From: Escherichia phage Mt1B1_P3
Direction: 5' to 3' (one strand)
Sequence record: MT496969.1
Length of the DNA stretch: 40,313 bases
The notes under the pieces were generated by a model, which did not search any database, had not been told where the DNA came from, and was given only the letters and a program-made list of their open reading frames with translations. A program made the position numbers and the translations under genes. Positions 781-37,269 of this stretch are shown here, piece after piece (positions within the stretch are counted from its first letter, which is position 1; each line of letters begins with the position of its first letter).

Positions 781-803
781 CTTCCCTATAGTGATAGTTA
801 AGT
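781..803 (-). promoter_or_regulatory. Phage RNAP promoter (phiOR-like), TSS about 786
   Basis: Minus strand ACTTAACTATCACTATAGGGAAG; matches the 10-copy consensus; lies between gene 19 and gene 19.5 as phiOR does in T7. Confidence 0.6.
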
Positions 804-7018: not shown

Positions 7019-7041
7019 GTTTCCTATAGTGATAGTTTAGT
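7019..7041 (-). promoter_or_regulatory. Phage RNAP promoter phi17, TSS about 7024
   Basis: Minus strand ACTAAACTATCACTATAGGAAAC immediately upstream of the tailspike gene. Confidence 0.65.
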
Positions 7042-10928: not shown

Positions 10929-13211
10929 TTACTCCTTACCGATTAGTACGTTTGCGATACCCTCCAATGAGACGTCATTGTACATCCCTCCGCGCTTCTC
11001 GATGTTGGCCTCTCGGTCAGCTCGACGTTTGTCACCGGCAGCTTTGGTCCCGACGATACGCGCTCGCTTGTTAGCGTCACGTTCTGCCTGAGCGTATGCG
11101 GCATCTTGTGCCTTCTGCTGTTGTTCGCGGTAGAGTTTACCTACAAGTTCTTTATCGTAGCGAATACGAATAGTACCTGTAGCGTCTTGGAGGAAGATAG
11201 AGCCATTCTGTTCAACAACGGACAACTGAGAGTTCACTACCCAAGGGTTGGCATTAATGAGCTGCTTACGAGCGGTGTCGATAATGTCTCGACCAGCCTG
11301 CCACGACTCTGGGTTATCCCCTACCATAAGCTGGTGCTTTGACACCATGCCGATGGACTTACCGTCAGAACCTTCAGACTGGAACGTTACGGTGTTCTCA
11401 TTCAGCCAGCGTTGAGTCTGCTGCGTTGCAGCGTCAGCGTTACCTGTACGATAGTACCATGAGTCCCAGACCTTACGAGCACTTGAGTCCAGAGACGTTG
11501 GGAGGCGAGACAACTGGGTGTTCTTGGAGTCGTTCTTCAACTCCTGCCACGCCTTGTCTGACTCCATGCGCATCTCACGGCTTTGACTTGCAGCTTGCTT
11601 ATCAGCTTCAATCATCGTCTGAGGGTCCAGACCCATCTTGTCCATCTGGTCGAACGTAGAGAACAACTGAGCTTGGTCAGGATACAGAGCAGCGAAACTT
11701 GAAGGGTCCTGAGTGTAGGCACGACGAAGAGACTCGAAGCGTTGCATCTTGTCTGGGTCGTACTGTCCACGGATGACAGCAGCTTGCCACTCACCAGCAG
11801 CGTCCTGAGTAAGAGTCTGGAAGGCATTACGGAACGGACCGTTGTTAGTGTCAGCTCTTAACAATGCCACCTTCTGGGCGTCCTTAGCAGCCTCAGGGAT
11901 GTCCATCTGGTCAATCTGCTGTAGCTTAGAAGACGCATAGTTGTTCATGTCTGAACGCTTGAACTCTCCTGTGGCTTCAGAGACCGGAAGGTCCTCATAG
12001 TTGGTGGACACGTTGTCTCCAGCCAGACGTCGCTGATAAACTTGGTCAATGACAAGTTGCTTGTTCTGGGTCTGGATTAACTTCGTGTTCTCCTTCGCCT
12101 GTTCAGCAGACTTACGCTTTACCGCTTCCAGTAAGCTGGCTTCGGCATTAATAAGCATCTGACGCTGAGGTGTGAGTTCTTCACCCGGTTGAAGCAGGTT
12201 GTTCTGCTCCTTGAGTTTCTGAATCTGGGCAAGACCGATGGTTGGGTCGTCCTGAAGAATCGCAGACTGAACGCCTAACGCTAAGTCTTCCTGATACTTA
12301 GCCACCAGCTTGTACTCAGTTCCTTGTGCCTCAACAATAGCAGCGTTGAAGACATCAGGTCCTACAATCTCTTCGACTGTAGCATCCACACCGTTAAGTG
12401 TGATTCGCTCGCCTCGTACTTGCTGTAGGAAGTTTGAGCCGCCTGACTTCTGGATTGCGTCACGTACAGTCTGGGTAATGACCTCACGCGCTCGCTGGTC
12501 CGAGGGGATAGCAGCAGTAGTCAGTCCGTCACGAAGGTAGGTCATGAATGTCTTGCCAGACTCAGGTGAACGCATCAGGTCGCCATCGTTCAGGAATGAG
12601 TTCATCTCAATACGGGTGTTCAACATTGCTGTCTCTTCAGACTGCTTGCTGAAATACTTATTGAAAGACCCATAGATAGCTATGTTGCGGTCTGTGATGT
12701 TATCGTTGAACCCACGCTGGAAGAACTCGTCTGTAGGGTTAATACCCGCCTCTTCAGCATAGGACTTAGCGGCGTCCTGAAGTCGCTGGTGGCGATACTC
12801 TTCCATGTCCTGACGTGTACGGAACTCACCGTTCTGAATCTTAACGTTAATCTCGTCGTCTACAGCAAAGGCAGCATTACGACCAGTCTTGACTCGAAGT
12901 GCTTCCATAGCGTAAGGGTCATCCTGATACAGCAATGTGCCGTTCTGGATAGCCTCACGTCTTTGCTGAGGTGTCAGTTTACGGATAATCTCGTTAGACC
13001 GCTCGTCAGCTCTGGTCTTCTCCTCGTCCTTGAACTGCTTGTACAATCCAGTCCCAGACTCAACGAAGTTGGTCAACGCACGAGCCAGACCGGAGTCACC
13101 AGTTGGAGCCTGAACGCTGGCTGCTTGATAGTTGACGGCGATAGTTTTACCAGGCGCTCTGCCACGACCCATAGTCCGATTAGCCAGAGCTGATTCAATA
13201 TTACTAGCCAT
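10929..13211 (-). CDS. 15: Internal virion protein C (gp15)
   Basis: 760 aa vs T7 gp15 747 aa; position between gp14 and gp16; GGAGG RBS. Confidence 0.88.
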   Translation of the reverse strand: MASNIESALANRTMGRGRAPGKTIAVNYQAASVQAPTGDSGLARALTNFVESGTGLYKQFKDEEKTRADERSNEIIRKLTPQQRREAIQNGTLLYQDDPYAMEALRVKTGRNAAFAVDDEINVKIQNGEFRTRQDMEEYRHQRLQDAAKSYAEEAGINPTDEFFQRGFNDNITDRNIAIYGSFNKYFSKQSEETAMLNTRIEMNSFLNDGDLMRSPESGKTFMTYLRDGLTTAAIPSDQRAREVITQTVRDAIQKSGGSNFLQQVRGERITLNGVDATVEEIVGPDVFNAAIVEAQGTEYKLVAKYQEDLALGVQSAILQDDPTIGLAQIQKLKEQNNLLQPGEELTPQRQMLINAEASLLEAVKRKSAEQAKENTKLIQTQNKQLVIDQVYQRRLAGDNVSTNYEDLPVSEATGEFKRSDMNNYASSKLQQIDQMDIPEAAKDAQKVALLRADTNNGPFRNAFQTLTQDAAGEWQAAVIRGQYDPDKMQRFESLRRAYTQDPSSFAALYPDQAQLFSTFDQMDKMGLDPQTMIEADKQAASQSREMRMESDKAWQELKNDSKNTQLSRLPTSLDSSARKVWDSWYYRTGNADAATQQTQRWLNENTVTFQSEGSDGKSIGMVSKHQLMVGDNPESWQAGRDIIDTARKQLINANPWVVNSQLSVVEQNGSIFLQDATGTIRIRYDKELVGKLYREQQQKAQDAAYAQAERDANKRARIVGTKAAGDKRRADREANIEKRGGMYNDVSLEGIANVLIGKE

Positions 13212-14294: not shown

Positions 14295-14317
14295 AGTCCC
14301 TATAGTGATAGTTAAGG
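14295..14317 (-). promoter_or_regulatory. Phage RNAP promoter phi13, TSS about 14300
   Basis: Minus strand CCTTAACTATCACTATAGGGACT; embedded between 12-bp perfect inverted repeats (14285-14296 / 14323-14334). Confidence 0.65.
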
Positions 14318-16936: not shown

Positions 16937-17502
16937 TAGTCCCTCCCGATGTCAGACATCATGTTGTAGCGACCAGTGTCCATCTCGTACTCCATAACCT
17001 GCTGATAGAGTTCTGCTTCCTGCTCACGAAGGTATAGCTCTGACTCTGGGCTACCGAAGAACTTAGCGTTGAACTCACGGCTAGCTTTAGTGACGATGTA
17101 GTCCCTGAAGACCACAGGCATCTCGGAGAATGGCTTCATCTCCACAAGCTCTACCGTGATGGGGTCGGTGAAAGTGGTTGACTGAGTGGATAGGTCGTAC
17201 AGGTATCCACCCATGTTGCTGTAGTAGCTGGTGGCCCCAGCGGTCATTACGCGAAGGTATGACGGCAAGAATCGAATCCTATTGTCTTGGACATCAGGTG
17301 TCAGGACAGCAGCTTCATTGATATTAAAGTTCCAGCCTTTAGCTTGGACCTGACGATTGACACGATGCAGGATACGTTGAGCGTTCGAGACGTCAGCGTT
17401 CCCCTCGTCAAGCTGTAGGACTGCTGGTTCACCGATAGCAGCTAACATATCGTTGATGGCGTCTAAGTCATCGTTAGCATTCAGTGGAATGTATTGAGCC
17501 AT
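16936..17502 (-). CDS. 11: Tail tubular protein A (gp11)
   Basis: 188 aa; aligns with T7 gp11 (DAINDMLAAIGEP..., NAQRILHRVNRQVQAKGWNFN). Confidence 0.93.
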   Translation of the reverse strand: MAQYIPLNANDDLDAINDMLAAIGEPAVLQLDEGNADVSNAQRILHRVNRQVQAKGWNFNINEAAVLTPDVQDNRIRFLPSYLRVMTAGATSYYSNMGGYLYDLSTQSTTFTDPITVELVEMKPFSEMPVVFRDYIVTKASREFNAKFFGSPESELYLREQEAELYQQVMEYEMDTGRYNMMSDIGRD

Positions 17503-17618
17503 AGGTTTACTCCTTAACGGTCATAGGCGCTAGACGGTGAGCTGGACAGCAGGTACGCCCAGAATAAGACGAATAGTGCTAACCCTGTGTAAATAAGGAC
17601 CATAGTACCTCCTTAAGC

Positions 17619-17654
17619 AAAAAACCCCTCAAGCACCCGAAGGCACCCAAGGGG
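17619..17654 (-). terminator. Tphi-like terminator downstream of the capsid gene
   Basis: Minus RNA CCCCUUGGGUGCCUUCGGGUGCUUGAGGGG followed by UUUUUU; near-identical architecture to T7 Tphi (AACCCCTTGGGGCCTCTAAACGGGTCTTGAGGGGTTTTTTG). Confidence 0.8.
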
Positions 17655-17660
17655 TTTCAA

Positions 17661-18835
17661 TTAGTTGTTGGACTCAGCCAGTTTAGCGGCCCTGTTCGCA
17701 GCACGAGTACGCGCAGCTTTCTGTTGAGGAGTTAGAGTCTCCTCTTCAGGTGCAGCCGCTACTGTAGCGACGTTAGGTTGGCTAAAGGTGCTTACGCCGC
17801 TGGGCTGAAAACCAGTGCGCCAGCCGCTTCAGGACGCAGACCACCGTGACCCATAGCGTATTTACCAACAATCAGGTCGCCCTGAGCATCTACGTCACGG
17901 TCACGTTCCAGCGCCAAGTCACGCAGCTTCACAGTACCCACAGCAGAACGGTGAGAGAACAGACCAACAACGTTGTCCATAGCAACTTTAACGTCGCCAG
18001 TAGCAGTTGCCGGGAATGCGTGTTTCTGACCGGAAGCGATAGAGATGCCATCGTCACCACGAGTCTCACCAGCGCCACCCTGTACCAGATGCGGAACTTC
18101 AACAACAACGAAGCCCATCACGTTACGGATGTTACCAGTCTCTGGGTCAATCAGCGCAGCATAGTTAGCAGCGTTCGGCATCAGAGCCGCTAGGATTGCA
18201 GAGTAGTTGTCCGGCGTGGTGTAGAAGTAACGGTCGCCAGCAGGAACGTAGTTGGAGGTCAGCTTCGCACGAGCAATGGTCAGTTGACCAATGATTGCTT
18301 CACCCAGTTTAGCCGGGGTGTTGAGGTCAGCTTTCTTGCCAACTTCCAGTACTGACGCAGTGCCCAGACCCACGATGTTCTCGTTGGATGCAGCCGGTAG
18401 GTTACACAGGATCGCCATTTCAGCCAGCACCGCACCATCAGCAGCGATAGCCAGAGCTTCGCCCAACTGGTTGGAATACTCGCCAGCCACGTCGTAGTGG
18501 TTCATCGCGTCTTCAATGTCGAAAATCATCACATCGGCAGTCAGCAGACCATCAATGGTAATCACTTTCTCGGTATGTTTGATACCTTTACGCTTATCGG
18601 ACAGTCGCTCACCCGGAGCCAGATACACACCAGAGGTGCGACCCATGACCGGGAACTGAGCAGACTTACCGTTCTGAATGGTACGGACAATATGCTTGTC
18701 AGCAGTTACAGAGCGGCGAGTGAATGCGGTCAGGACTTCACCAGCAAATACCTTCAGGAACAACGCCAGAGCGTCTGAACTGGATTTGCCTTTACCTTGG
18801 TCTGTACCAATTTTCTGACCCGGAACGTTTGCCAT
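17661..18835 (-). CDS. 10B: Minor capsid protein 10B via -1 programmed frameshift near codon 343
   Basis: Slippery G GUU UUC (plus-strand 17807-17813) 4 codons before the 10A stop, as in T7; -1 frame stays open for about 47 codons (…QPSGVSTFSQPNVATVAAAPEEETLTPQQKAARTRAANRAAKLAESNN) and stops 7 nt before Tphi. Confidence 0.6.
17792..18835 (-). CDS. 10A: Major capsid protein 10A
   Basis: 347 aa, highly similar to T7 gp10A throughout (DKLALFLKVF-like N-terminus, ...AKYAMGHGGLRPEAAGA); GGAGA RBS as in T7. Confidence 0.97.
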   Translation of the reverse strand: MANVPGQKIGTDQGKGKSSSDALALFLKVFAGEVLTAFTRRSVTADKHIVRTIQNGKSAQFPVMGRTSGVYLAPGERLSDKRKGIKHTEKVITIDGLLTADVMIFDIEDAMNHYDVAGEYSNQLGEALAIAADGAVLAEMAILCNLPAASNENIVGLGTASVLEVGKKADLNTPAKLGEAIIGQLTIARAKLTSNYVPAGDRYFYTTPDNYSAILAALMPNAANYAALIDPETGNIRNVMGFVVVEVPHLVQGGAGETRGDDGISIASGQKHAFPATATGDVKVAMDNVVGLFSHRSAVGTVKLRDLALERDRDVDAQGDLIVGKYAMGHGGLRPEAAGALVFSPAA

Positions 18836-18937
18836 ATGATAATTCTCCTATTCAATTGAAAGATAAAGTTTATTACTTACTGTATGCCCAATCCGTATGG
18901 ACTGAAGTAATAGGGAAACCTTGAGTCTATCTCTTGG

Positions 18938-18960
18938 TCTCCCTATAGTGATAGTTTAGT
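18938..18960 (-). promoter_or_regulatory. Phage RNAP promoter phi10, TSS about 18943
   Basis: Minus strand ACTAAACTATCACTATAGGGAGA; initiating GGGAGA identical to T7 class III promoters; directly upstream of capsid gene. Confidence 0.7.
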
Positions 18961-18961
18961 C

Positions 18962-19882
18962 CTACAGGCTTGAGGCAGCTACCTTAGCGCGAACTTCCAT
19001 AGTGTATTTAGCGTCACGCAGGTATCGCGGGTCACTCATGGCCTTAATCATGTCAGCCTTGGAGCTGAATGCTTCGGTCTGAGGAGCCTTAGGTGCGACC
19101 ACAGGTTTAGCCTGAGTGGTGATGGTACGCTGAGGTTTAACACCCACAGCTTTACCCAGAGTCTTGCCAGCCAGATTCAGCAGAGCTTTGGTAGTCGCAA
19201 TGTCCTTACGAACGATAGCAGCTTCCAGTGCTTCACGAGTTGATGGGTCGTTGGACTCAAGGTGTGACAGGATGCGATTAAACTGTTCAGCTCCGCCAGC
19301 GTAGCGAACCACACCAGCAGCATACTGTTCAGCCAGAGCTTCCTGACCACGGACAAACGAATCTACGAAACGCTTGGTGTAACCTGCTTCCTGCAACTTA
19401 GCGTAGGATGCGTCAGACAGCTTACCGTCCTTGGCGTATTCAGCCTTGATAGCGGTAATTTCATCAGCAGTGACCTTGCCGGCTTCTACAGCAGAAGACA
19501 CCATGTCGTCAAATGCAGCTTCGTTTTCATCCAGAGCGGTGACACTTTCGGTCAGCTCTTTAGGTGCATCACCAAGTTCTACGAACTCAGGTTGCTCACC
19601 ATCTGTCTCAGACTCTTCGTCATCTGACTCGTGGTCTTCTTCACCTTCAGTCTCTTCGACGTTTTCGTCTTCTTCGGTCGCCTCTTCGTTTTCGGCTTCC
19701 AGTTGCTTGAAGGTAATAGCGTCATCGCCATCACGAACAGCTACGTCCTGTTCAAGCATAGACTTCTGGTGTTCGTTCAGGTCCTCAACGGAACCAGTGA
19801 TTGCATTAGAGCTAACGCCGAACTCGGCATAAACTGATTGAGACATTAAGTCATTCTCCTTTAAGTCGTTAATAGGAAACAC
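18962..19882 (-). CDS. 9: Capsid assembly (scaffolding) protein gp9
   Basis: 306 aa, strongly acidic with Glu/Asp-rich tract; T7 gp9 is 307 aa at same position. Confidence 0.88.
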   Translation of the reverse strand: MFPINDLKENDLMSQSVYAEFGVSSNAITGSVEDLNEHQKSMLEQDVAVRDGDDAITFKQLEAENEEATEEDENVEETEGEEDHESDDEESETDGEQPEFVELGDAPKELTESVTALDENEAAFDDMVSSAVEAGKVTADEITAIKAEYAKDGKLSDASYAKLQEAGYTKRFVDSFVRGQEALAEQYAAGVVRYAGGAEQFNRILSHLESNDPSTREALEAAIVRKDIATTKALLNLAGKTLGKAVGVKPQRTITTQAKPVVAPKAPQTEAFSSKADMIKAMSDPRYLRDAKYTMEVRAKVAASSL

Positions 19883-19936
19883 AACAACCTGCCCTCCCGT
19901 TACGGCTGGCTATGCGTTCACTCACTCAAGTTGTGT

Positions 19937-19959
19937 TGTTCCTATAGTGATAGTTTAGG
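19937..19959 (-). promoter_or_regulatory. Phage RNAP promoter phi9, TSS about 19942
   Basis: Minus strand CCTAAACTATCACTATAGGAACA upstream of scaffold gene; overlaps the portal gene stop. Confidence 0.65.
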
Positions 19960-21523
19960 CTTGAGCCATGTCCTCACCAGCTCCCTGACCTACAGCAGCA
20001 CCCATGTTAGCACCAGCAGCACTAGCACCTTGGACAACTGCCTGTTGAGACGACTGCTCTGCCATGCGCTGAATCTTCTCGTCTTGCGTCAGGAGTAGGC
20101 CAGCGGTGTCGATGCCCAGAGCGTTCAGGAGTCGCAGCTTAAGGGTCGGCAAATTGATGTCCGGGTCCTGAGATAGCGGCTGAAGACCAGTCATCATGTT
20201 AACCGCCTGAGTCAGCTTCTCCAAGTCCTGACCACGGCCCAGAGCTTCCAGACCAGTTGAGACAGTAGGCTCTACCGCTTCTTTCGGAAGGTCAGGAATC
20301 ATGCCAGCAGACTGAAGTTGGTTCATCAGCACACGGACGATAGGTAACTGAAGCTCTTGTGACTGTACTGAATACACGCCACCTAAGGTCGCCTCCAGTT
20401 CGCCAGCAACATAACGAATCTCTTCGGCAGTGACTCGCTCGGCATTACGCTGAACAGCACTATTGAGAAGGAAGGCCCAGCCTAGACGTTGCTCGATAGC
20501 GTCAGCCACCGATTTAGCAATCGTAAAGTCCTGACCTTTCGTCAGTTGCAGAAAGTTGATGTCCTCAACGCGACCAGCCACGAACTCACCTGTAGCCGCC
20601 TTATTCAGACGACGAGGTTGCGTGATACCGTTCGGGTTAACGAGGCCCACCACTTTGGAGGCTACCTTAGCCATTTTGGTGATAGCTTCTGTAATCGTCT
20701 CCAGCGAGTTCAGGTCTCCCAGATACTCCTCGCAATAAGAGCGCCCATAGTCTTCACCGTCCAGTCGAACCATTCGTACCGGGATGTATGGACAGGCAGT
20801 CAGTGGGTAAGAACCATCGGTCCCTGCTACCTCAATGCCTTCCACTTCCTCGTAGCGTAGATACTCGTCGTCCTGACGGTAAATGTGCGTATACACTTCC
20901 AGCTCGGTGTCAGGCTCATAGTCGTCTGCGTTGAGTTGAGACTTCACGTCTTCCGGTAGAGCACTAAACGCTACCTTGTCGAGAGTCACAATCTGCAAGA
21001 TGTTACCGAACGCATCACGTTGAACAACGTAAGACACTAAGCGGTACATTCGCATGGGACTGTAGGTTCCCTGTTCAGGCTCTGGAATGTAGAGCAGACA
21101 GTTACCGGAGACTATAAGCTGCTTCAGAGCTTCGAACAATGGAACACGGAAACTGTTTGTCTCCATGTAGGCCATCAACACACGCTCGACCATAGCAAGC
21201 CCCTCGTCAACACGAGCAGCAGCCTCTGAGTCCTGACTCAAGGTCTTAGCCTCATATTCGGAGACTGTAAGTCGCATCCACGGTGACTGGGGGAATAATG
21301 CCAACATCAGCTTTGCAGCCAAGTTGTTCAAACATCGAGCACCTACAGCTTGCCACGGAGTGGTGTACTCAGTAGACGAGTTGTCGGACTCCTTAGGAAA
21401 CAGTGACGGGATAGTGACAGCAGCACAATTCTGAGCGCGTGTCTCATATGGCTGTCTACCGTTCTTCAGTCGGTCATAGACCGCTTTGGCCCCTTCAGCA
21501 GCGAACCCTTCACGTTCAGCCAT
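19955..21523 (-). CDS. 8: Portal (head-to-tail connector) protein gp8
   Basis: 522 aa vs T7 gp8 536 aa; position between gp7.3 and gp9. Confidence 0.93.
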   Translation of the reverse strand: MAEREGFAAEGAKAVYDRLKNGRQPYETRAQNCAAVTIPSLFPKESDNSSTEYTTPWQAVGARCLNNLAAKLMLALFPQSPWMRLTVSEYEAKTLSQDSEAAARVDEGLAMVERVLMAYMETNSFRVPLFEALKQLIVSGNCLLYIPEPEQGTYSPMRMYRLVSYVVQRDAFGNILQIVTLDKVAFSALPEDVKSQLNADDYEPDTELEVYTHIYRQDDEYLRYEEVEGIEVAGTDGSYPLTACPYIPVRMVRLDGEDYGRSYCEEYLGDLNSLETITEAITKMAKVASKVVGLVNPNGITQPRRLNKAATGEFVAGRVEDINFLQLTKGQDFTIAKSVADAIEQRLGWAFLLNSAVQRNAERVTAEEIRYVAGELEATLGGVYSVQSQELQLPIVRVLMNQLQSAGMIPDLPKEAVEPTVSTGLEALGRGQDLEKLTQAVNMMTGLQPLSQDPDINLPTLKLRLLNALGIDTAGLLLTQDEKIQRMAEQSSQQAVVQGASAAGANMGAAVGQGAGEDMAQA

Positions 21524-21534
21524 TCGTCACCTCC

Positions 21535-21786
21535 TTAAATAGAAATACCACCACCAGAGGTGCGAGAGACCTGAAGGCTCCGCTTACCTGAACGCTTCAC
21601 TTTCTTCTCATCAGATGCGGTTGCTTCGGTATCCACATCTTCCACTTTATCGTTCGGTACTTCCACTGGTGCTGCTGCTGGGGTCGGAGCCTCAACAACC
21701 TTAGGTGCATCGTCAGAGCCAAGACCCACTGTCCCTAACGTACTTTTCACCACTTTCTTGAAAGCCTTACTGATTGATTTACCCAC
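21535..21786 (-). CDS. 7.3: gp7.3-like tail/host-range protein
   Basis: 83 aa, Ala/Pro/Lys-rich low-complexity protein at T7 gp7.3 position. Confidence 0.65.
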   Translation of the reverse strand: MGKSISKAFKKVVKSTLGTVGLGSDDAPKVVEAPTPAAAPVEVPNDKVEDVDTEATASDEKKVKRSGKRSLQVSRTSGGGISI

Positions 21787-22201
21787 GGTTAATCTCCTTG
21801 TTCGTGCTAACGCACTTGGTTGTTACGATGTCTACCGACCCAGAAACATGCTTGACACGAGAATACCAGCCAAGACCCCACTGCTTGCACTCTTCGTCTA
21901 TGATGTGCCTGACAGTCTCAAGAACCTTGCGGGAGGACTGCGAGTCACGACGAATAGCGACGATTGAAAGGTCAAGACCGGGAGTCGGTCGGTGCCAAGA
22001 TGCGGTAGCCAGCATGTAGAGATACGCTACTGGTTGACCTGAGACATCGTAGATTGTGTACTCCTCACCGTCGAACTCGTCAGCCATACGGTAAGTATGA
22101 GCCTTGAAGTCCTCGAATGACTTGAAGTTAGACTGCCCGTCTTCCCAGAGGCGACAAGCGCACATGTGGCGGCCTTCGCGTGAGTTGAGATATGGTAGCA
22201 T
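21779..22201 (-). CDS. gp7-like protein (hypothetical)
   Basis: 140 aa ORF at the T7 gene 7 position (T7 gp7 is 133 aa); called on position and size only. Confidence 0.55.
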   Translation of the reverse strand: MLPYLNSREGRHMCACRLWEDGQSNFKSFEDFKAHTYRMADEFDGEEYTIYDVSGQPVAYLYMLATASWHRPTPGLDLSIVAIRRDSQSSRKVLETVRHIIDEECKQWGLGWYSRVKHVSGSVDIVTTKCVSTNKEINRG

Positions 22202-22205: not shown

Positions 22206-22430
22206 TTACCCCATGTTGACGCCAGAGTTACGCATAGCGCGACTTACTGACGATTTATCTTTAGGTGCAGACTCCTTCTTGACCTTCAGGTCTTTGATAC
22301 CTTTGGTCTCGTTGGTGCCCACGTCCGATTCAGCCCCGATGTCAACTGACGCAACTTCCTCACTCAGAGGTGCTGGTTCAGGTGCTTGGACCGAAGGCTT
22401 CGGAGTGCTAATCTTTGGACTGAAACACAT
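22206..22430 (-). CDS. 6.7: gp6.7-like head protein
   Basis: 74 aa beginning MCFSPKISTPK, matching T7 gp6.7 N-terminus MCFSPKIKTPK. Confidence 0.8.
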   Translation of the reverse strand: MCFSPKISTPKPSVQAPEPAPLSEEVASVDIGAESDVGTNETKGIKDLKVKKESAPKDKSSVSRAMRNSGVNMG

Positions 22431-22778: not shown

Positions 22779-22801
22779 AGTCCCTATAGTGATAGTTTAG
22801 T
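22779..22801 (-). promoter_or_regulatory. Phage RNAP promoter phi6.5, TSS about 22784
   Basis: Minus strand ACTAAACTATCACTATAGGGACT. Confidence 0.65.
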
Positions 22802-24487: not shown

Positions 24488-26658
24488 TAGTGACACTCCT
24501 TCCACGTTGGTCCAATCTTACCTTCGGTATCAAGGACACATTTAAAGTTATAGAACTCACCCACCTTACGCATAGCAAGTTGAGCAATCTTGACGACTTC
24601 TTCGGCAATCTCCTGAGTACGACACGCAATCTGTAGCTCATCGTGAACCCAAGCCATGTACGCAAAGTCACCTTCCCAGCCGTGAACATACCCGGCATCT
24701 TCGAGCATACGTTCAGTCTCGACAATCCAGTGCTTACAGACTACCGCACCATCGCCTTGAAGTAAGGCGTTAAGTGCTGAGTGTGGAGACCGGATGTGGA
24801 TACGCCGACCATCAAGTCCACGCAACCAACGGCGTTTCCACTTGACGATGTTCTCTCCGTCCACCCACTTAGAGTCTGAGATTAACGTATCACTCACAGC
24901 TTCCCTGAGGTCCTTGATGGCTGGTGTGCCCTCAATGAATTTCTTCATGAGAGCTGAACCTTCCTTCTTACCACCGCCAACTATCAGTCCAATCTTCGCG
25001 GCCCCTGCACCATACAGGAACGCATAGATGAACGTCTTAGCGTTATTACGGAAAGCATCATGGTCGTGGCTCGACTTGTCGCGTGGGACGTTAGGTGCTA
25101 ACCCAGCGTTTACTGCGTTGGCCCAGTGTATGTCCCCTTCGACCACAGTCTTCGCATAGTCTCCACCATCAAACGGAGCCGCTCGGTTCCCTAGACAACG
25201 AAGCTCAAGACCTGAAGCATCCACGCCTACTTGAATCCAAGGGTCTGGCTTACCATCCGTCTTGTTCCAAGCTGCACCGAAAGCACCACGGCAAGTCTCA
25301 CCGTATGGAGCACCGTTAGCCGGGACTTGAGCCATGTTTGGTGAACTGTGAGTCGCACGTCCGGTTACTGCCCCGCATGGGTTTATTGAACCGTGCATAC
25401 GTCCGTCTGGACCTACAAGTTTCAACCATGCGTTCTTACCTTCAGCAGCCTGACCGATGCGCTTCTGGACTACCAGATACTCACGGACCAGCTCTACGCA
25501 AGCCTGAGCCTCTTCGTCTGGCAACTTAACGTGTTCTAACGTCTCGTCATCGACCACAGGTTTCCCGGTGTCAGTGAAGTCCACAGGCTCCCAGCCACGC
25601 TCCATCAGAACTTTCGCTAAGTGGTCCCCGCTTCCCGGATTGAACTCAACGTAAGTGATAGGTGTGAATGGTGCTCCCTCCATCGTGTCTCGCGTATCGC
25701 GTTCACAAGGTTCAAGACCTAAGCGTTGAGCTTTGTTCTTCGGCTTCTTAAAGATGCCACCGACCTTAGGATACACGACTCTCGGATACTTCGGAAGGTC
25801 CTTGCCTGTACGTGGGTGCTTGAAGAACTCCTTTCCGCCCTTTGGTGCGTACCAGCTACCGAAAGTCGAACGCAGCTTGTCCAGCAACTCTGCACGTTTG
25901 ACGGTGAGTTCACGATATAAGCCTTCGACCATCTCGGTGTTCATCGGATAGCCGTTACGCTCCATCTTCGCACAGGTCCACGCAGCATCGTGTTCCAGAC
26001 GCAACGCATAAATCTGGTCGAAAGCGAACTGTTCAGACTGGAAGTAATACTTGTCAGTCAGGAACTTCTTGAACAACGCCAGTGTGACCACAACGTCTTG
26101 AACGTTATAGTCCAGCATCTCCTGAGACGGGAACAACCATTCGTCCCCAGCCTTATATTCGATACCTTCAGCCTTGCATTTGGCAACGTAATCGTGTTTG
26201 TACTCACCCTTCATCTCACCGAGACGATAGCCCCAAGCCTCAAGAGACTGACGTCCCATCATACTAGGTGGCAGACGACCAGATTTCACTGCGCCCATGT
26301 CTGAGAACTTAATGTTTGGATACATCAAGCGGCCCAGCACCAAGGTATCAATCATCTTGTGTTTCGGGAAGTTAAAGCGTTTCCCAAAGTACAGACGTTT
26401 CAGCTTGTCTATAGCAGGGACGTCATAGTTGATACCGTTATGGAATACCAGCATACCATCAGGTGATGCGGCAATCTCTTCCACTTTATGAACATACTCT
26501 TTGAAGCCACCGACGATACCGACCATCGGAGCTACCCCATACTTAAGGGTCTCATTCGACTCGGCGTTAATCAGGACCCCACAGTGAAACTGGGAGACTG
26601 TATCAAGGAGACCGTTGGTCTCGATGTCAGAACCCCAGATACTCTTAAGGTCAAACAT
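24487..26658 (-). CDS. 5: DNA polymerase gp5
   Basis: Collinear with T7 DNAP (DIETNGLL, FHNGxxYDVPA, GKPxPKYPR, GDFAYMAWVHDE, LDTEGKxGP). Start placed at ATG 26658 (MFDL...) with GGAGG RBS; track start 26694 is an upstream GTG. Confidence 0.96.
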   Translation of the reverse strand: MFDLKSIWGSDIETNGLLDTVSQFHCGVLINAESNETLKYGVAPMVGIVGGFKEYVHKVEEIAASPDGMLVFHNGINYDVPAIDKLKRLYFGKRFNFPKHKMIDTLVLGRLMYPNIKFSDMGAVKSGRLPPSMMGRQSLEAWGYRLGEMKGEYKHDYVAKCKAEGIEYKAGDEWLFPSQEMLDYNVQDVVVTLALFKKFLTDKYYFQSEQFAFDQIYALRLEHDAAWTCAKMERNGYPMNTEMVEGLYRELTVKRAELLDKLRSTFGSWYAPKGGKEFFKHPRTGKDLPKYPRVVYPKVGGIFKKPKNKAQRLGLEPCERDTRDTMEGAPFTPITYVEFNPGSGDHLAKVLMERGWEPVDFTDTGKPVVDDETLEHVKLPDEEAQACVELVREYLVVQKRIGQAAEGKNAWLKLVGPDGRMHGSINPCGAVTGRATHSSPNMAQVPANGAPYGETCRGAFGAAWNKTDGKPDPWIQVGVDASGLELRCLGNRAAPFDGGDYAKTVVEGDIHWANAVNAGLAPNVPRDKSSHDHDAFRNNAKTFIYAFLYGAGAAKIGLIVGGGKKEGSALMKKFIEGTPAIKDLREAVSDTLISDSKWVDGENIVKWKRRWLRGLDGRRIHIRSPHSALNALLQGDGAVVCKHWIVETERMLEDAGYVHGWEGDFAYMAWVHDELQIACRTQEIAEEVVKIAQLAMRKVGEFYNFKCVLDTEGKIGPTWKECH

Positions 26659-26681
26659 GGTTAATCCTCCGTTTAGTCTAA

Positions 26682-26719
26682 TCATAAAGGCCACTCGCTG
26701 TGAATGACCTTGAGTCTAG
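26682..26719 (-). promoter_or_regulatory. Putative RNase III processing hairpin (R4.7-like) upstream of DNAP
   Basis: Second copy of ATAAAGGCCAC-N-ATGACCTTGAGTCTA element. Confidence 0.45.
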
Positions 26720-26721
26720 AC

Positions 26722-28601
<1,880 letters not shown>

Positions 28602-28648
28602 TCACTCCTTAATCACAAATGCGAACAAAGGGACAGGACTAATTGTCC

Positions 28649-28671
28649 CATCCCTAAGGTGATAGTTTAGG
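28649..28671 (-). promoter_or_regulatory. Variant phage promoter upstream of gene 4, followed by 5' hairpin
   Basis: Minus strand CCTAAACTATCACCTTAGGGATG (two changes at -4/-3 vs consensus); transcript would begin with GGGACA-N8-UGUCCC hairpin (plus 28630-28649). Confidence 0.5.
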
Positions 28672-28882
28672 CTTTGAAGAACTGAGCCAACTGGTCAGCT
28701 TTGGTATCAGCCTGACGAGCCTTCATTCCAGCTTCCAGTGACGCGATGGTCAGCTTGTCAGCCAGAGCAGCAGCATCAGCCGCACCGTCCGCATTCTTCT
28801 TTTCTACCTTTCGTTCCAGTACCGCAGCACGACGATACCCACGCACCACCAGACGACCAAGAAATTCGATAATTTTAATCAT
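28667..28882 (-). CDS. Hypothetical 71-aa protein (Ala/Lys-rich, predicted helical)
   Basis: MIKIIEFLGRLVVRGYRR...ADAAALADKLTIASLEAGMKARQADTKADQLAQFFKA; ATG with AAGGGAG RBS; occupies the slot of T7 gene 3.8 but unrelated to HNH endonuclease. Confidence 0.6.
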   Translation of the reverse strand: MIKIIEFLGRLVVRGYRRAAVLERKVEKKNADGAADAAALADKLTIASLEAGMKARQADTKADQLAQFFKA

Positions 28883-28906
28883 TTGGTTGTTCTCCCTTAG
28901 AGTTTA

Positions 28907-29365
28907 TTAACCACGGTCGGAAGTGACCAGTTCATTGGTAGACAGCCAGCGTTGCAAGTCAAAACTTGGACACGCCTTAGGTGCTACGTCATGGTGTGCT
29001 TTGATTTCTGCCTGAGGATACAGGACCTTCAGGTCAGCCAGCTTGTTGCGCAGGGAGTTCATCTGGGCTGGAGTGAAGTTAGCTTCAAACTGACCCTTAG
29101 CGTCAATTCCACCTACAAGGCAGACGCCTACTGACCGGGAGTTCCAATCCTTAACGTGTGACCCTACGACATTTACCGGGCGACCCTCTTCCACAGTACC
29201 ATCACGCTTGATGATAAAGTGGTAGCCTACATCCAGCCAGCCTTGCTGCTTGTGCCACATACGGATGGTCTCTACCCCGATGTCCATCTCTGGCTTGGTA
29301 GCCGAACAGTGCACGAAGATAGCGTCAGTCCGGGACCGTGGGTTGAACTGTACCTTACTTACCAT
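28907..29365 (-). CDS. 3.5: Lysozyme / N-acetylmuramoyl-L-alanine amidase gp3.5
   Basis: 152 aa; near-identical blocks to T7 lysozyme (DAIFVHCSATKP, WLDVGYHFIIKRDGTVE, VGVCLVGGID, KACPSFDL, NELVTSDRG). Confidence 0.96.
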   Translation of the reverse strand: MVSKVQFNPRSRTDAIFVHCSATKPEMDIGVETIRMWHKQQGWLDVGYHFIIKRDGTVEEGRPVNVVGSHVKDWNSRSVGVCLVGGIDAKGQFEANFTPAQMNSLRNKLADLKVLYPQAEIKAHHDVAPKACPSFDLQRWLSTNELVTSDRG

Positions 29366-29825
29366 TGTACACCACCAGTTCTACTACCACAAGATTCAGA
29401 TGTGACTGGAAGCGCTGTGCGTCAGTCGTGTGCATCTGTAGCCGCTTGTGGTTGAATACGTGAGAGTTGCTAATCTTCACGTACACTTCGTCAGGCTTAC
29501 CGTGGACGATGAACGTCTGGCCTACACCAATCTTGTTGATGGTCAGGACTTCACGTTTAACGGTGACAGGAGGGACGCTTGAGGCTGGTAGGACCTGAGG
29601 TTTATCCTCTACGATTTCCTCAAGATTTTCGTTTACAACCCACGCCCCCCACATACCATCAGGCTGAGTGTTATGACCTGCTGCTCCGTGTTTGTATGTG
29701 CCACGCTCAGTGGATTCCACCAGAGTATGTCCGTTTGATGGTGCAGGGTCTTTCGCACATTTCGTAACGATAGTGCCTTTAGGCCACCCGTAGCCACTAA
29801 CCTTAAGTCTATATTTCTGAGTCAT
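29355..29825 (-). CDS. Hypothetical 156-aa protein inserted between endonuclease I and lysozyme
   Basis: ATG overlaps gp3 stop (TGATG) with AAGGAG 7 nt upstream; 3' end overlaps lysozyme start by 11 nt. No recognised motif. No T7 gene at this position. Confidence 0.7.
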   Translation of the reverse strand: MTQKYRLKVSGYGWPKGTIVTKCAKDPAPSNGHTLVESTERGTYKHGAAGHNTQPDGMWGAWVVNENLEEIVEDKPQVLPASSVPPVTVKREVLTINKIGVGQTFIVHGKPDEVYVKISNSHVFNHKRLQMHTTDAQRFQSHLNLVVVELVVYNGK

Positions 29826-30277
29826 CACTTAACTCCTTTCTTCTTGGGGATGAGGATACCTGAAGGCAGACGTACAGTCGCCTCTTTCAGCCACTCAACC
29901 GGGATGAACTTATCGGCATACTTATAGCCATTCTTTTCACACCATGCGCCATACGTGGTCGGAGACCCTTTGTATAGCTTGGAGCGGGAACTTGAGAACA
30001 CGAACCGGATGTCTAACTCTGGGTGCTGTTCTCGTACCAGAAGGTGCTTCTTACGGTCATCACTATCGAAGATACCTTTGGTCTCCACGATGATACCGTT
30101 AGGAAGGATAAAGTCTGGTGTATACTTGTGGTCGGAAGCCGGAATCACATAGTTGATATAATGGCTTTCGTACTCCGCTTTGACGCCATTCTGTTCCAGC
30201 CACTGCTGGTTCTTGGCTTCAAGTCCAGAGCGGTAGGCACCCACAGAGTGCCCCCGTTTTGCAGACCATTGGGCCAT
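29825..30277 (-). CDS. 3: Endonuclease I (Holliday junction resolvase) gp3
   Basis: 150 aa; aligns with T7 gp3 (GAYRSGLE, YVIPASxHxYTPDFxLPNGIxVETKG, DDRKKHLLxREQHPELDIRxVFSSSRxKLYKGSPT). Confidence 0.96.
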   Translation of the reverse strand: MAQWSAKRGHSVGAYRSGLEAKNQQWLEQNGVKAEYESHYINYVIPASDHKYTPDFILPNGIIVETKGIFDSDDRKKHLLVREQHPELDIRFVFSSSRSKLYKGSPTTYGAWCEKNGYKYADKFIPVEWLKEATVRLPSGILIPKKKGVK

Positions 30278-30975
30278 TAGAAGTCGTAATCGCCACCAGA
30301 GTTGGAGTCGTCACCACCTTCGGAACCATCGTCACCGAAGTCATCGTCACCGAAGTCACCATCGGTTGACGCTTTGTAGCCAGTACCGAGGTCTTCATCA
30401 TCACCCCAGCCACCATCGCCACCAGCACCATCACCTTTCCATTCCTTCAGTTCTACCAGAAGGCAGGACTCAAGCTGGAGCTTAACGCTTGCACCAGTCG
30501 CAGCGTTCCACTTGAACGGCAGGACTTTAAACTTGACCTTCAGCTTTGAGCCAGCGCCAATATTCGGGACGTCACGGATTAACTTAGCATCGGTGTCGTA
30601 GAACCGTAATACGATAGGCTCTGACTTGCCGTCTTTAAGGTAAGACGCAAAGCATTTAAACTTAAGGGTAACAGTACCGTCACCATTCTCAATCCACGGC
30701 ATGTCGCCTTCTCGTGGTTCAATAGGCTTCTTGCCACGCTGAACCTGAGGTGGGTTCTTCTCGTGGTCTGCGAGTGCTTTCGCATACGCATCGTCGTGAA
30801 TCTTCTGTAAGACATCAATCATCTTACGGACCTTAGGGTTGCTCAGGTCGAAAGTCAGGTTAACCTTATGCTCACCACGCTCGTTAAACTTGGTGTCTGC
30901 TTTGTTCAGCCATGCGTAAGGCTCAACGATACCAGATACCGGAGTGGTGAAAGTCTTCAGTTGCTCTTTAGCCAT
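30277..30975 (-). CDS. 2.5: Single-stranded DNA-binding protein gp2.5
   Basis: 232 aa (same as T7 gp2.5); acidic C-terminal tail ending in Phe (…GGDDSNSGGDYDF). Confidence 0.95.
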   Translation of the reverse strand: MAKEQLKTFTTPVSGIVEPYAWLNKADTKFNERGEHKVNLTFDLSNPKVRKMIDVLQKIHDDAYAKALADHEKNPPQVQRGKKPIEPREGDMPWIENGDGTVTLKFKCFASYLKDGKSEPIVLRFYDTDAKLIRDVPNIGAGSKLKVKFKVLPFKWNAATGASVKLQLESCLLVELKEWKGDGAGGDGGWGDDEDLGTGYKASTDGDFGDDDFGDDGSEGGDDSNSGGDYDF

Positions 30976-31014
30976 TGGTGTACATCTCCTAATTTAAAGT
31001 TACGAACTGGACGT

Positions 31015-31037
31015 CTGTCCTACAGTGATAGTTTAGG
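31015..31037 (-). promoter_or_regulatory. Phage RNAP promoter phi2.5, TSS about 31020
   Basis: Minus strand ACCTAAACTATCACTGTAGGACAG (one change, -3 G). Confidence 0.6.
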
Positions 31038-31191: not shown

Positions 31192-31278
31192 AAACCGCGC
31201 TCCTTCCATTGGTTGTATAACGTAATGTAGTCCGGGTTGAGAGTCTTCTCGTACATCTCCCGGCACCACTCACTAGGT

Positions 31279-32189: not shown

Positions 32190-32213
32190 AGAGTCTCCTT
32201 AGGTTGTTGATGG

Positions 32214-32236
32214 TTGTCCTATAGTGATAGCTTAGG
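32214..32236 (-). promoter_or_regulatory. Phage RNAP promoter phi1.6, TSS about 32219
   Basis: Minus strand CCTAAGCTATCACTATAGGACAA. Confidence 0.6.
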
Positions 32237-33881: not shown

Positions 33882-33921
33882 TCATGAAGGCCACGACTTT
33901 GAGTCATGACCTTGAGTCTAA
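33882..33921 (-). promoter_or_regulatory. Putative RNase III processing hairpin (R1.1-like)
   Basis: Third copy of ATGAAGGCCAC-N11-ATGACCTTGAGTCTA element, in the leader of the phi1.1 transcript. Confidence 0.45.
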
Positions 33922-33941
33922 TCCTATAGTGATAGTTTAGG
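33919..33941 (-). promoter_or_regulatory. Phage RNAP promoter phi1.1, TSS about 33924
   Basis: Minus strand CCCTAAACTATCACTATAGGATTA. Confidence 0.65.
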
Positions 33942-34490: not shown

Positions 34491-37172
34491 TTACGCGAAT
34501 GCAAAGTCTGAAGACAAGATGTCTTCGATATTCAGTTTACCTTTCTTCGGAAGCTCAGGCAACTTGTCGCGCTGGCTCTCGTGAAGCTGGTATTCAAACT
34601 GCTCGTAGAAGTCAAGCAGCACATCGTTATCGCGGTAGGTCTCGACCATCGTCTCACGGACGCCACGGAACAGATACTCAGCGTCAGCCGGGATGGTCCC
34701 GAAGCTATCGTGAATCACTGCGAAGGACATCACGCCATACTTGCGGTGCGTGTGGACTACAGTCTTGCGTAGGTGGCTACCATCTTGTGAGTGGACGAAG
34801 TTCGGGCTAATGCCTGACTCCTGCTTGTGCTTGTCCAGCTCTTTCTTCGTGCCTTTGTTGACCGTAGGCTGAAGGTTGAATGACCCTAAGAACATCAGAT
34901 TCAGACGAGTGGTATCCTTCTTGCGGTATTCCTGCCAGACCGGGAAACCATCAGGTGTTACCCAGTGTACCGGAAGGCAAGGCTTCAGTATTTCTCCAGT
35001 CTTCTTGTCCTTCACTTCAGCAGCCAGCAGCTTGGCAGCACCCTGAAGCCACTTCATCGCGTCAACCGCAGCAACTACGGTCACGCTCACAGCTTCCCAA
35101 ATCATCTTAGCCATGAAGCGGGACGCTTGGCTTGGTTCGGTGAACATAGCGCCAGACCCTGAGTCAATCGCCGGCATCACGATGTCCTCATAAACTTGGT
35201 CTGCGAAGCCGTACTCTTTCGACCCATAGGCCAGAGTCATTACTGAACGCTTAGTGACCTTGCGTGACATGCCGTAAGTCAGCCACTGCCGGGCCAGCTC
35301 TCGTGTCCCCAGCTTGAGGCGTTCGGTAATCTCACCAGTTTTCTTGTCCTCGTGAGTTACCATCTCGTTGTCTGTGCCGTTAACCAGCAGGACTTTAAGC
35401 TCTTCCTCAATGCGGTCGGACACGATTCGGTAGATGTCTTGGACCTTACCGGAAGGCGTTAGGTTTACTGCATGTCCACCTATGTGATCACGAAGCATCG
35501 CGCTAAAGTGCTGAATCCCTGAGCATGACCCATCGAACGCTATCGGTAATGAGCAGGAGTAAGACAATCCGTGGTGCATTACACCAGCATACTCGAAGCA
35601 GAACGCAAGGAAGCAGAACGGAGAGTCTAACTTGCCCCACCACTCAATGCTATCCATCGGTGCCTTAGCAGCAGCCATAATGTTGTCGTGGTTGTCTTCC
35701 ACCCACTTGATGCGCTCCTCGAAGGTGACTTTATCAACACCCGCGCAGTTTGCACCATGGACCTTCAGCCATTTGAAACCGTCAGCACCAATAGGCTTAC
35801 CGACTGCCAGAGTAAGGAGACCTTTCTGCATGTCGTTACCCTGAGGGTTGAACATCGGAACAGCGTAGACGCGCCCACGCCAGTCCATGTTGTACGGGAA
35901 CCAGATGGCCTTGAACTGAGAGAACTTGTTCGCTTGGTTAACGATAAAGCTCAGTGACAATCTTCGCGACTGTCGGGCCTTCTCGCGGCGATAGATACCA
36001 GCAGCAGCCTTCTTCCATGCCTTGAGTTCCTCCTCAGTCTCACCCGCATAGTCTTCAGGCTTCAGTGGCTCCATCTGAGGGATGTCATCAATAGGCGTGT
36101 TGTTCAACTTCTCGACCATGTTCACCACGTCCAGTACCTTCTTGTTCACTTTCCAAGGTGTATTCTGGATGATATTCACAGCGTCATAGACTTCAGGCAT
36201 GTATACGTCTTCATAACGTGCCACCGCTGATTTAGACCCTAAGCGAATCAGGGGTAGCGGTCTGCGACCTTTGGCCCAGTACCCACCACCTACGACACCA
36301 GTCCACGGCTTAGGTGGAACGACGCAAGGCTGGTAGACTGGAGCTATACCCGCAAGGCTGAATCCTCGTTGTGCCATCTTCTTGACCCAGAAGTCTGACA
36401 GGTGGACCATCTCTACGTCAGCCGCTGCATTGCCAGCACCGTACCGCTTAAGCTCGACCAGTTGTGTTGACTGGATGACAATCTCAAGCATCTTGATGCC
36501 AACGTGGACAGCCTCTGTAGGACTCCAAGTTCCCCACGCATCTTCCAGTTGGCCTTGCTCCAGCATGGATGTCTCGACCGCTTGCATGTAGGCTTTCTTG
36601 TAGGACGCCCCGGCCCGCTTATTCAGGTTATCAGCTATCGCCTTCTTGAAGTGCTCTTTCTCTTTGTCACGGATGCGACCGAAGCGGATTTCGTCCTCAA
36701 GTGTGCGACCTATCGCGGAGGCCATCGGTGTAATCGGTATCCCTTCAGGCTTTACCAGCTTGGAGAGTATGACCTTCAGTATGATGACCGCAGCAGACTC
36801 GCAAGGGATACGCAGAGAGCGGTCCTTGACGGCCTTCTCTTCGGTGCTTAACATGGTGAACGCTACGCTAGGACGAGAGGTTGAAAGCTTCCCGTCTGGA
36901 CCTTCATACCACTCCCTGACGGCTTGCGCAATCTTAGGAACCAGAGTCTGCATCAAAGGCTTGGCGACCTGATTGTCTGCCAGTTCCCCGCGCTCAGTCT
37001 GTCGCTCAAGGTTTTTGATGAAACGTCGCTCGCCTTCAGTGTATGCCTCATGCTCAAGCTGAAGCTGCTTGACTGCAAGGTCCTTCCCGTAGTGGTCAGC
37101 CAGCAGGTTAAACGGCTCAATGGCGTTCGACACATCAGAGAAGTCGTGTTTATCAATAGAGATGACGCTCAT
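34491..37172 (-). CDS. 1: Single-subunit DNA-dependent RNA polymerase (T7 RNAP family)
   Basis: 893 aa; collinear with T7/T3 RNAP (KNDFSD...PFNxLADHYG, WFPYNMDWRGRVYAVPMFNPQGNDMxKGLLTLA, FDGSCSGIQHFSAMLRD, VMTLAYGS, IHDSFGT, C-terminal SDFAFA). Confidence 0.98.
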   Translation of the reverse strand: MSVISIDKHDFSDVSNAIEPFNLLADHYGKDLAVKQLQLEHEAYTEGERRFIKNLERQTERGELADNQVAKPLMQTLVPKIAQAVREWYEGPDGKLSTSRPSVAFTMLSTEEKAVKDRSLRIPCESAAVIILKVILSKLVKPEGIPITPMASAIGRTLEDEIRFGRIRDKEKEHFKKAIADNLNKRAGASYKKAYMQAVETSMLEQGQLEDAWGTWSPTEAVHVGIKMLEIVIQSTQLVELKRYGAGNAAADVEMVHLSDFWVKKMAQRGFSLAGIAPVYQPCVVPPKPWTGVVGGGYWAKGRRPLPLIRLGSKSAVARYEDVYMPEVYDAVNIIQNTPWKVNKKVLDVVNMVEKLNNTPIDDIPQMEPLKPEDYAGETEEELKAWKKAAAGIYRREKARQSRRLSLSFIVNQANKFSQFKAIWFPYNMDWRGRVYAVPMFNPQGNDMQKGLLTLAVGKPIGADGFKWLKVHGANCAGVDKVTFEERIKWVEDNHDNIMAAAKAPMDSIEWWGKLDSPFCFLAFCFEYAGVMHHGLSYSCSLPIAFDGSCSGIQHFSAMLRDHIGGHAVNLTPSGKVQDIYRIVSDRIEEELKVLLVNGTDNEMVTHEDKKTGEITERLKLGTRELARQWLTYGMSRKVTKRSVMTLAYGSKEYGFADQVYEDIVMPAIDSGSGAMFTEPSQASRFMAKMIWEAVSVTVVAAVDAMKWLQGAAKLLAAEVKDKKTGEILKPCLPVHWVTPDGFPVWQEYRKKDTTRLNLMFLGSFNLQPTVNKGTKKELDKHKQESGISPNFVHSQDGSHLRKTVVHTHRKYGVMSFAVIHDSFGTIPADAEYLFRGVRETMVETYRDNDVLLDFYEQFEYQLHESQRDKLPELPKKGKLNIEDILSSDFAFA

Positions 37173-37240: not shown

Positions 37241-37263
37241 TTAGTCCTAAAGTGATAGTTAAG
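37241..37263 (-). promoter_or_regulatory. Degenerate phage-promoter-like sequence upstream of the RNAP gene
   Basis: Minus strand GACTTAACTATCACTTTAGGACTAA: upstream half matches consensus, but -3 and +3 deviate; functional status unknown. Confidence 0.3.
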
Positions 37264-37269
37264 TCATAA

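Follow-up and report, generated by a model that had tools for sequence, protein, structure and literature searches.

Eleven K1F-type promoters and their cognate RNA polymerase in the genome of Escherichia phage Mt1B1_P3

Eleven copies of a 23-bp element are distributed along the genome of Escherichia phage Mt1B1_P3, and these almost certainly serve as promoters for the single-subunit RNA polymerase that the phage itself encodes, with the specificity of the K1F/Kayfunavirus class. The motif class, its consensus, its layout along the genome, and the specificity residues of the polymerase are already known; the observation is real and had been correctly interpreted. Described here are the sites, the polymerase that is expected to read them, and a number of neighboring features of the genome.

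The K1F promoter class has been approached experimentally. Temme et al. (2012) replaced residues Q744 to I761 of the T7 RNA polymerase (RNAP) with the K1F hairpin and, correspondingly, positions -12 to -7 of the T7 promoter with the consensus of the K1F subfamily (PMC3458549). With T7(K1F) and its promoter, induction was 17-fold, and high orthogonality of this pair to the T7, T3, and N4-type pairs was reported (PMC3458549). A natural enzyme was studied by Takatsuki et al. (2025, JBC), who demonstrated that the purified RNAP of Ro45lw transcribes from ACTTAACTATCACTATAGGGACT in vitro, that +1 is a G as judged by deep sequencing, and that ACTTAACTATCACTATAGGGA constitutes the minimal promoter (PMC12272871). 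The varying background signal in that study was put down by its authors to cross-reactivity of T7 RNAP with foreign promoters (PMC12272871). In addition, CTWAACTATCACTATAGG repeats were described as promoters in a 2026 genome paper on the Kayfunavirus Sparklingdew (PMC13298934).

The genome and its relatives

The analysis covered sequence record MT496969.1 at its full length of 40,313 bp, which is referred to here as the window. An exact direct terminal repeat of 202 bp occupies positions 1-202 and 40112-40313, which indicates that the window comprises an entire linear genome of the T7 type, given as its reverse complement. It is 100% identical to the unannotated record of Kayfunavirus MT1B1P3 (OZ035815.1) over positions 17000-22000 and 99.7% identical to it over positions 25001-40313. 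The identity with Escherichia phage vB_EcoA_ASO2B (MZ726794) is 98.5-99.9%, and that with phage K1F is ∼95% at the nucleotide level over 5 kb. On the basis of nucleotide identity and synteny, the genome can be assigned to Kayfunavirus. Records labeled as Acinetobacter phage vB_Aba_01KA (PV615262.1), Enterococcus phage EFA-1 (MT350292.1), and Klebsiella phage SEA1f (OR287805.1) are likewise ∼95% identical to the window genome, and their host labels look doubtful.

Promoter sites

A scan of the window with the 20-mer CTAAACTATCACTATAGGGA, allowing for up to three mismatches, yielded exactly ten matches, all of which lie on the minus strand (783-802, 7021-7040, 14297-14316, 18940-18959, 19939-19958, 22781-22800, 28651-28670, 31017-31036, 32216-32235, and 33921-33940). 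The same scan of 100 dinucleotide-preserving shuffles gave no matches, and chance occurrence of the motif is thereby ruled out. A looser scan with the -13 to +2 core revealed an eleventh copy at 37264-37242 (minus strand), which shows four mismatches to CTAAACTATCACTATAGGGA and a single one, -3 A>T, within the core. With the 19-mer consensus spanning -17 to +2 and a limit of three mismatches, eleven sites are found in the window; their coordinates are provided in Table 1. All eleven lie on the coding strand, either between genes or at the 3' ends of genes, and they precede genes 1, 1.15, 1.6, 2.5, 4, 6.5, 9, 10, 13, 17, and 19.5 by 30-190 nt.

A first-pass annotation of this DNA had listed ten copies. 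Each of the ten places was recovered; the count is one short, the copy ahead of gene 1 having been missed. Its assignment of downstream genes 1.6, 2.5, 4, 6.5, 9, 10, 13, 17, and 19.5 agrees with the present one, and the copy that it placed before gene 1.1 precedes an open reading frame named 1.1 in EcoDS1 and 1.15 in K1F (AM084414). In the numbering employed here the 23-mer extends from -17 to +6, and the starts given in that annotation correspond to position +6. Its register for the specificity block was off by one. The letters TATCA, given there as -12 to -8, occupy -10 to -6, whereas -12 to -8 reads ACTAT and -11 to -7 reads CTATC. When the sites are aligned to the T7 promoter (-17 TAATACGACTCACTATA -1), the blocks with which TATCA had been compared, namely GACTC for T7, CCCTC for T3, and GGCAC for K11, sit at -11 to -7.

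Table 1 Promoters and associated features of the window. Promoter sequences are given from -17 to -1 and, after the slash, from +1 to +6.
Feature	Position	Strand	Sequence	Remarks
phi10 promoter	18938..18960 (+1 at 18943)	-	ACTAAACTATCACTATA / GGGAGA	Perfect consensus copy; precedes gene 10 (major capsid, 17792-18835); corresponds exactly to the K1F-consensus promoter marked at 21008-21030 in MZ726794
Gene 1 promoter (eleventh copy)	37242..37264 (+1 at 37247)	-	ACTTAACTATCACTTTA / GGACTA	-3 A>T; 75 nt from +1 to the downstream start codon of gene 1 (ATG at 37172); syntenic copy is promoter 'phi' in EcoDS1 (2244-2266)
Promoter of gene 1.15 (K1F) / 1.1 (EcoDS1)	33919..33941	-	CCTAAACTATCACTATA / GGATTA	Annotated in ASO2B and EcoDS1; upstream of a 59-aa ORF (33666-33845), then genes 1.2 and 1.3 (ligase)
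phi1.6 promoter	32214..32236	-	CCTAAGCTATCACTATA / GGACAA	-12 G; annotated in ASO2B and EcoDS1
phi2.5 promoter	31015..31037	-	CCTAAACTATCACTGTA / GGACAG	-3 G; annotated in ASO2B and EcoDS1
Gene 4 promoter	28649..28671	-	CCTAAACTATCACCTTA / GGGATG	-4 C, -3 T; annotated in EcoDS1 (11107-11129)
phi6.5 promoter	22779..22801	-	ACTAAACTATCACTATA / GGGACT	Annotated in ASO2B and EcoDS1
phi9 promoter	19937..19959	-	CCTAAACTATCACTATA / GGAACA	Overlaps gene 8 3' end; annotated in ASO2B and EcoDS1
phi13 promoter	14295..14317	-	CCTTAACTATCACTATA / GGGACT	Annotated in ASO2B and EcoDS1
phi17 promoter	7019..7041	-	ACTAAACTATCACTATA / GGAAAC	Overlaps gene 16 3' end; ahead of tailspike (endosialidase) gene 17; annotated in ASO2B and EcoDS1
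phiOR promoter	781..803	-	ACTTAACTATCACTATA / GGGAAG	Precedes gene 19.5 (442-600); 'phiOR' in EcoDS1
Gene 1, single-subunit RNA polymerase	34491..37172	-		893 aa; Pfam RNA_pol (PF00940), RPOL_N (PF14700)
RNAP specificity loop	34833..34928	-	YRKKDTTRLNLMFLGSFNLQPTVNKGTKKELD	Residues 749-780, equivalent to T7 739-770
phi10 transcript 5' leader hairpin	18913..18943	-	GGGAGACC...GGUUUCCC	Fold from +1 to ATG: MFE -27.5 kcal/mol, z -3.4
Tphi-like intrinsic terminator 3' of gene 10	17616..17643	-	stem-loop, then GTTTTTTGCT	Syntenic terminator in ASO2B (22312-22355) and EcoDS1

The eleven aligned sites have an information content of ∼36 bits. Among the 19 positions between -17 and +2, fourteen show no variation in any copy, namely -16, -15, -13, -11 to -5, -2, -1, +1, and +2. 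The block from -12 to -8 is ACTAT in every copy apart from that of phi1.6, where it is GCTAT. Positions -4 and -3 vary in three of the eleven copies, and the surrounding CAC at -7 to -5 and the bases at -2, -1, +1, and +2 are fixed throughout. A subtype with T at -14 comprises the gene 1, gene 13, and phiOR copies. As had been noted in the first-pass annotation, the phi10 copy initiates with GGGAGA and the gene 4 copy is the most divergent. The phi10 copy is the sole one with this start, and the divergence of the gene 4 copy holds for the -17 to -1 part (CACCTTA, with -4 C and -3 T). From -17 to +4, the phiOR copy is the same as the minimal Ro45lw promoter that was tested in vitro.

A candidate for a twelfth promoter, located inside gene 17 at 5821-5799 (minus strand; AGTGAACTATCACTGTA / TGAGTA), was rejected on the basis of a T at +1, mismatches at -16 to -14, and its position within a coding region. 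This near-match (5799-5821) is also present in ASO2B and is probably non-functional. In K1F, nothing lies within two mismatches of the -13 to +2 core beyond its eleven promoters.

Other promoter classes were searched for in the window as well. No site falls within four mismatches of the T7, K11, or SP6 consensus, or indeed within five of that for T7, and none falls within three of the T3, K11, or SP6 consensus. At four mismatches the T3 consensus has a single match, which is the phiOR copy of the K1F-type motif itself, and the weak T3 matches at four to five mismatches are mostly K1F-type sites. Taken together, the absence of T7, K11, and SP6 matches within four mismatches and the identity of the lone T3 match indicate that the K1F type is the sole class of promoter for the phage's own polymerase. 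An Rfam scan of the whole window yielded no family at the gathering score.

The RNA polymerase and its specificity loop

The gene 1 RNAP is 99% identical to that of K1F (885 of 893 residues), with an identical specificity loop, 94% identical to that of Ro45lw, and 64% identical to T7 RNAP. Polymerases at least 90% identical to it are encoded in more than 200 phage records. The catalytic residues Asp 537, Lys 631, and Asp 812 are invariant in an alignment with the T7, T3, and K11 enzymes.

The first-pass annotation had proposed a comparison of the specificity loop with that of T7 RNAP. Within the hairpin corresponding to T7 residues 744-761, the replacements Q754S, R756N, and I761V are observed, and Arg 746, Asn 748, and Gln 758 are kept. 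The alignment with T7 also displays Q744T, which is absent from Table 2 of the NAR 2025 study, and other differences within residues 739-770. That table summarizes the T7(K1F) variant of Temme et al. as 754S/756N/761V and pairs it with a cognate promoter having ACTAT at -12 to -8 (PMC11880802). The window matches this pairing exactly, both in the loop and in the promoter block. This pattern of replaced and retained residues fits the retained bases, C at -7 and T at -8, and the changed base at -9. The correspondence between residues and bases is not a simple one-to-one swap, given that Asn 748 is kept although positions -11 and -10 are C and T here and G and A in T7. A search of the PDB revealed no structure of a K1F-type polymerase-promoter complex, T7 RNAP being the only one of the close relatives represented.

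Comparison with the T7, T3, and K11 systems

The element shares with the class II and class III promoters of T7 (RNAP structure 1CEZ) a 23-bp architecture, the sequence CACTATAGG from -7 to +2, and a GG start. Its placement is also that of T7, with promoters ahead of genes 1.1-like, 1.6, 2.5, 4, 6.5, 9, 10, 13, and 17 and at phiOR, and the order of phi10, leader hairpin, gene 10, and Tphi is the same. The two systems differ from -17 to -8, where the window has ACTAAACTAT and T7 has TAATACGACT; within this region, the -12 to -8 block is ACTAT in the window and CGACT in T7. The corresponding difference in the polymerase loop includes the Q754S, R756N, and I761V changes. The window has an extra promoter directly before gene 1; to our knowledge, none is found at that position in T7, where phiOL is located near the left end.

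The T3 promoter has A at -12 and C at -11 in common with the window, but its -12 to -8 block is ACCCT and is accompanied by N748D. The K11 enzyme shares R756N with the window RNAP, but its -12 to -8 block is GGGCA and is accompanied by Q758K. The engineered T7(K1F) with PK1F (Temme et al. 2012) and the K1FR sigma fragment (Segall-Shapiro et al. 2014) contain the same hairpin sequence and the same ACTAT block. T7(K1F) is a loop graft in a T7 backbone, combined with a T7 promoter altered only at -12 to -7, whereas the enzyme of the window is a natural one, and its natural promoters differ from those of T7 at -17 to -13 as well.

With an element of ∼23 bp, the core CACTATA at -7 to -1, a GG start, co-orientation with the gene blocks that T7 promoters also precede, and a cognate T7-like RNAP with its catalytic residues encoded in the same genome, the sites fall within the T7 group (Studiervirinae). 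ACTAT at -12 to -8 and a 754S/756N/761V hairpin, both of which are present, define the K1F class; the class of T7 RNAP itself (Teseptimavirus) is characterized by CGACT together with Asn 748, Arg 756, and Gln 758, and residue 756 is an asparagine here. By every sequence criterion tested, then, the element belongs to the K1F/Kayfunavirus promoter class.

Conservation and annotation in related phages

The 23-bp sequence is the same in K1F and in other members of Kayfunavirus (EcoDS1, vB_EcoA_ASO2B, Ro45lw, and Sparklingdew), and the specificity loop of the window polymerase is that of K1F. When the sites were extracted from the window, K1F, ASO2B, and EcoDS1 and compared, the same eleven, in the same layout, were found in all four genomes. 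Positions -11 to -5 are invariant in the eleven copies and across the four genomes. The variants peculiar to individual sites are also kept, including G at -12 in phi1.6, G at -3 in phi2.5 (T in ASO2B), C at -4 and T at -3 in the gene 4 copy, which has the most divergent core and is identical in this respect in K1F, ASO2B, and EcoDS1, GGGAGA at phi10 only, the T at -14 of the gene 1, phi13, and phiOR copies, and the differing +3 to +6 sequences. At -3 of the copy upstream of gene 1, the base is T in the window and ASO2B, as against the consensus A in K1F and EcoDS1. The remaining, likewise trivial differences between the window and K1F, EcoDS1, and ASO2B are single-base changes at -17 and at +3 to +6 (gene 4 and phiOR copies).

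Existing annotation of these sites is uneven. In MZ726794 (ASO2B) nine sites are annotated as 'promoter', similar to the K1F consensus (A/C)CTAAACTATCACTATAGGRAAA, which is credited there to Scholl and Merril (2005); the copy upstream of gene 1 and the gene 4 copy are omitted. In EcoDS1 (NC_011042) all eleven are annotated, including those two and phiOR. In IMG/VR, more than 120 stretches contain the 15-mer AACTATCACTATAGG; many of those with multiple copies come from contigs of ∼40 kb, and there are numerous single matches in contigs that are short or of unrelated length.

Three 'rho-independent terminators' in the ASO2B record (21023-21067, 6255-6291, and 39264-39320) are hairpins that begin at or just after a promoter +1, and their counterparts in the window are ∼18901-18945 and the stretches immediately 3' of 33919 and 781. 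The one at phi10 is the stem-loop of the transcript 5' leader, as in T7. For the other two, an identity as RNase III or leader hairpins is more likely than one as terminators.

Regions flanking the gene 1 and phiOR promoters

The 40-45 nt that precede the gene 1 promoter (37265-37309) and the phiOR promoter (804-848) are ∼60% identical, with 24 of 40 positions the same, whereas the mean over all promoter pairs is 10.9 (sd 3.3). This likeness is conserved in K1F, ASO2B, and EcoDS1, and thus in four genomes with the window. The two flanks share a stretch of ∼40 nt, CGCTAACCnACTGaTaTgCAAG, with the common pattern CGCTAACCnACTG.T.T.CAAG, the GTCTAAC part of which is also found at phi13. Upstream of gene 1 the stretch falls within the 3' end of gene 0.38. 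A duplication of the promoter together with its flank, or a common upstream element, could account for the resemblance.

It is conceivable, albeit rather unlikely, that the gene 1 promoter, the least documented of these elements, provides positive feedback on the polymerase, perhaps attenuated in this lineage through the -3 A>T change, and that the stretch in common with phiOR marks a second function such as replication or concatemer processing. The phiOL and phiOR promoters of T7 would be the analogue for such a pair of end-proximal promoters with a second function.

Other repeats and the tailspike gene

A 53-nt direct repeat, with copies at 3153-3205 and 33869-33921 that are 81% identical, was also observed. 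Both copies are hairpin-forming; one lies between genes 18 and 18.5, and the other is immediately 3' of the phi1.15 start. In T7, the RNase III sites R18.5 and R1.1 occupy these positions. A motif of the repeat, TAGACTCAAGG, is also present in the phi10 leader. The copy at 3153-3205 is matched at ∼92% over ∼50 nt in many Klebsiella phages of Przondovirus, and the DNA that flanks it has no match there.

As in K1F, the tailspike encoded by gene 17 (3778-6972, minus strand) is a K1 endosialidase. A segment of 1.35 kb within the gene (4670-6021) is ∼91-92% identical to the endosialidase of the SP6-like phage K1-5 (AY370674) and to that of phage ULINTec7, and it matches the CUS-3 prophage endosialidase weakly. 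K1-5 is an unrelated phage and ULINTec7 a likewise distinct one; the receptor-destroying domain has here been exchanged horizontally.

Alternative explanations

Dispersed copies of a sequence need not be promoters, and the elements might instead serve as recombination or homing hot spots, replication origins, or packaging signals and not as transcription start signals. In T7, a link to replication also exists for the promoters in the vicinity of gene 1.1 and at the ends of the genome, and the likeness of the gene 1 and phiOR upstream regions noted above (24 of 40 against a mean of 10.9, sd 3.3) would be in keeping with such a role. A secondary function in replication would, however, supplement promoter function rather than supplant it. 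Every copy points in the direction of the genes and is placed immediately before a gene block, the -7 to +2 core is that of the T7-group promoters, and a polymerase that is 94% identical, that of Ro45lw, initiates at a K1F-type sequence in vitro. Repeats of another kind are thus considered exceedingly improbable.

That the sites are promoters with no distinct specificity, read much as T7 RNAP reads its own promoters and with -12 to -8 differences that reflect neutral drift, is regarded as very unlikely. Such a scheme might draw on the identity of the -7 to +2 core with that of T7, on the 64% identity of the polymerases, and on the cross-reactivity of T7 RNAP with foreign promoters suggested by the authors of the 2025 JBC study. 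It is at odds with the fixation of -11 to -5 in eleven copies and four genomes and with the asparagine that replaces Arg 756, a residue that contacts a base in the T7 complex. Moreover, high orthogonality was reported for T7 RNAP and T7(K1F), each with its own promoter (PMC3458549). The claim in the first-pass annotation of an RNAP specificity distinct from those of T7, T3, and K11 is therefore borne out by the consensus scans, the loop differences, and the published orthogonality of T7(K1F). Its description of the promoter as having its own specificity determinants is right as to their reality, but they are not new, since the K1F/Kayfunavirus promoter class has been published.

Proposed mechanism and implications

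With the sites taken as K1F-type promoters, a scheme for transcription of the genome can be put forward. By analogy with T7, the host RNA polymerase would transcribe the early region and gene 1. The phage polymerase would bind duplex DNA from -17 to -5, with its N-terminal AT-rich-recognition loop contacting -17 to -13 and its specificity β-hairpin (residues 749-780) reading the major groove at approximately -12 to -7. The conserved TATA at -4 to -1 would be melted, and transcription would start at G+1 G+2. Promoter activity and a G at +1 have been demonstrated by others on close relatives (Ro45lw), as has the activity of T7(K1F) on ACTAT promoters.

From homology we infer that each of the eleven sites is used during infection, and that they differ in strength. 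The deviations at individual sites, graded in the early and middle copies and absent from the perfect phi10 copy, probably set graded promoter strengths, in the manner of the class II and class III promoters of T7, a suggestion that stems from how strictly they are conserved within the genus. Two copies, those of gene 1 (-3 T) and gene 4 (-4 C, -3 T), depart from the consensus where the DNA is melted and may be weak promoters. The perfect GGGAGA copy at phi10 would drive expression of the capsid gene up to the Tphi-like terminator.

The discovery value of the sites is small, inasmuch as the class is already in use as an orthogonal part in synthetic biology in the form of the K1F loop and the PK1F promoter. 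For the annotation of Kayfunavirus genomes they are of immediate use: OZ035815.1 is bare, two of the promoters are missing from MZ726794, and the eleven sites of Table 1 are directly transferable to both records.
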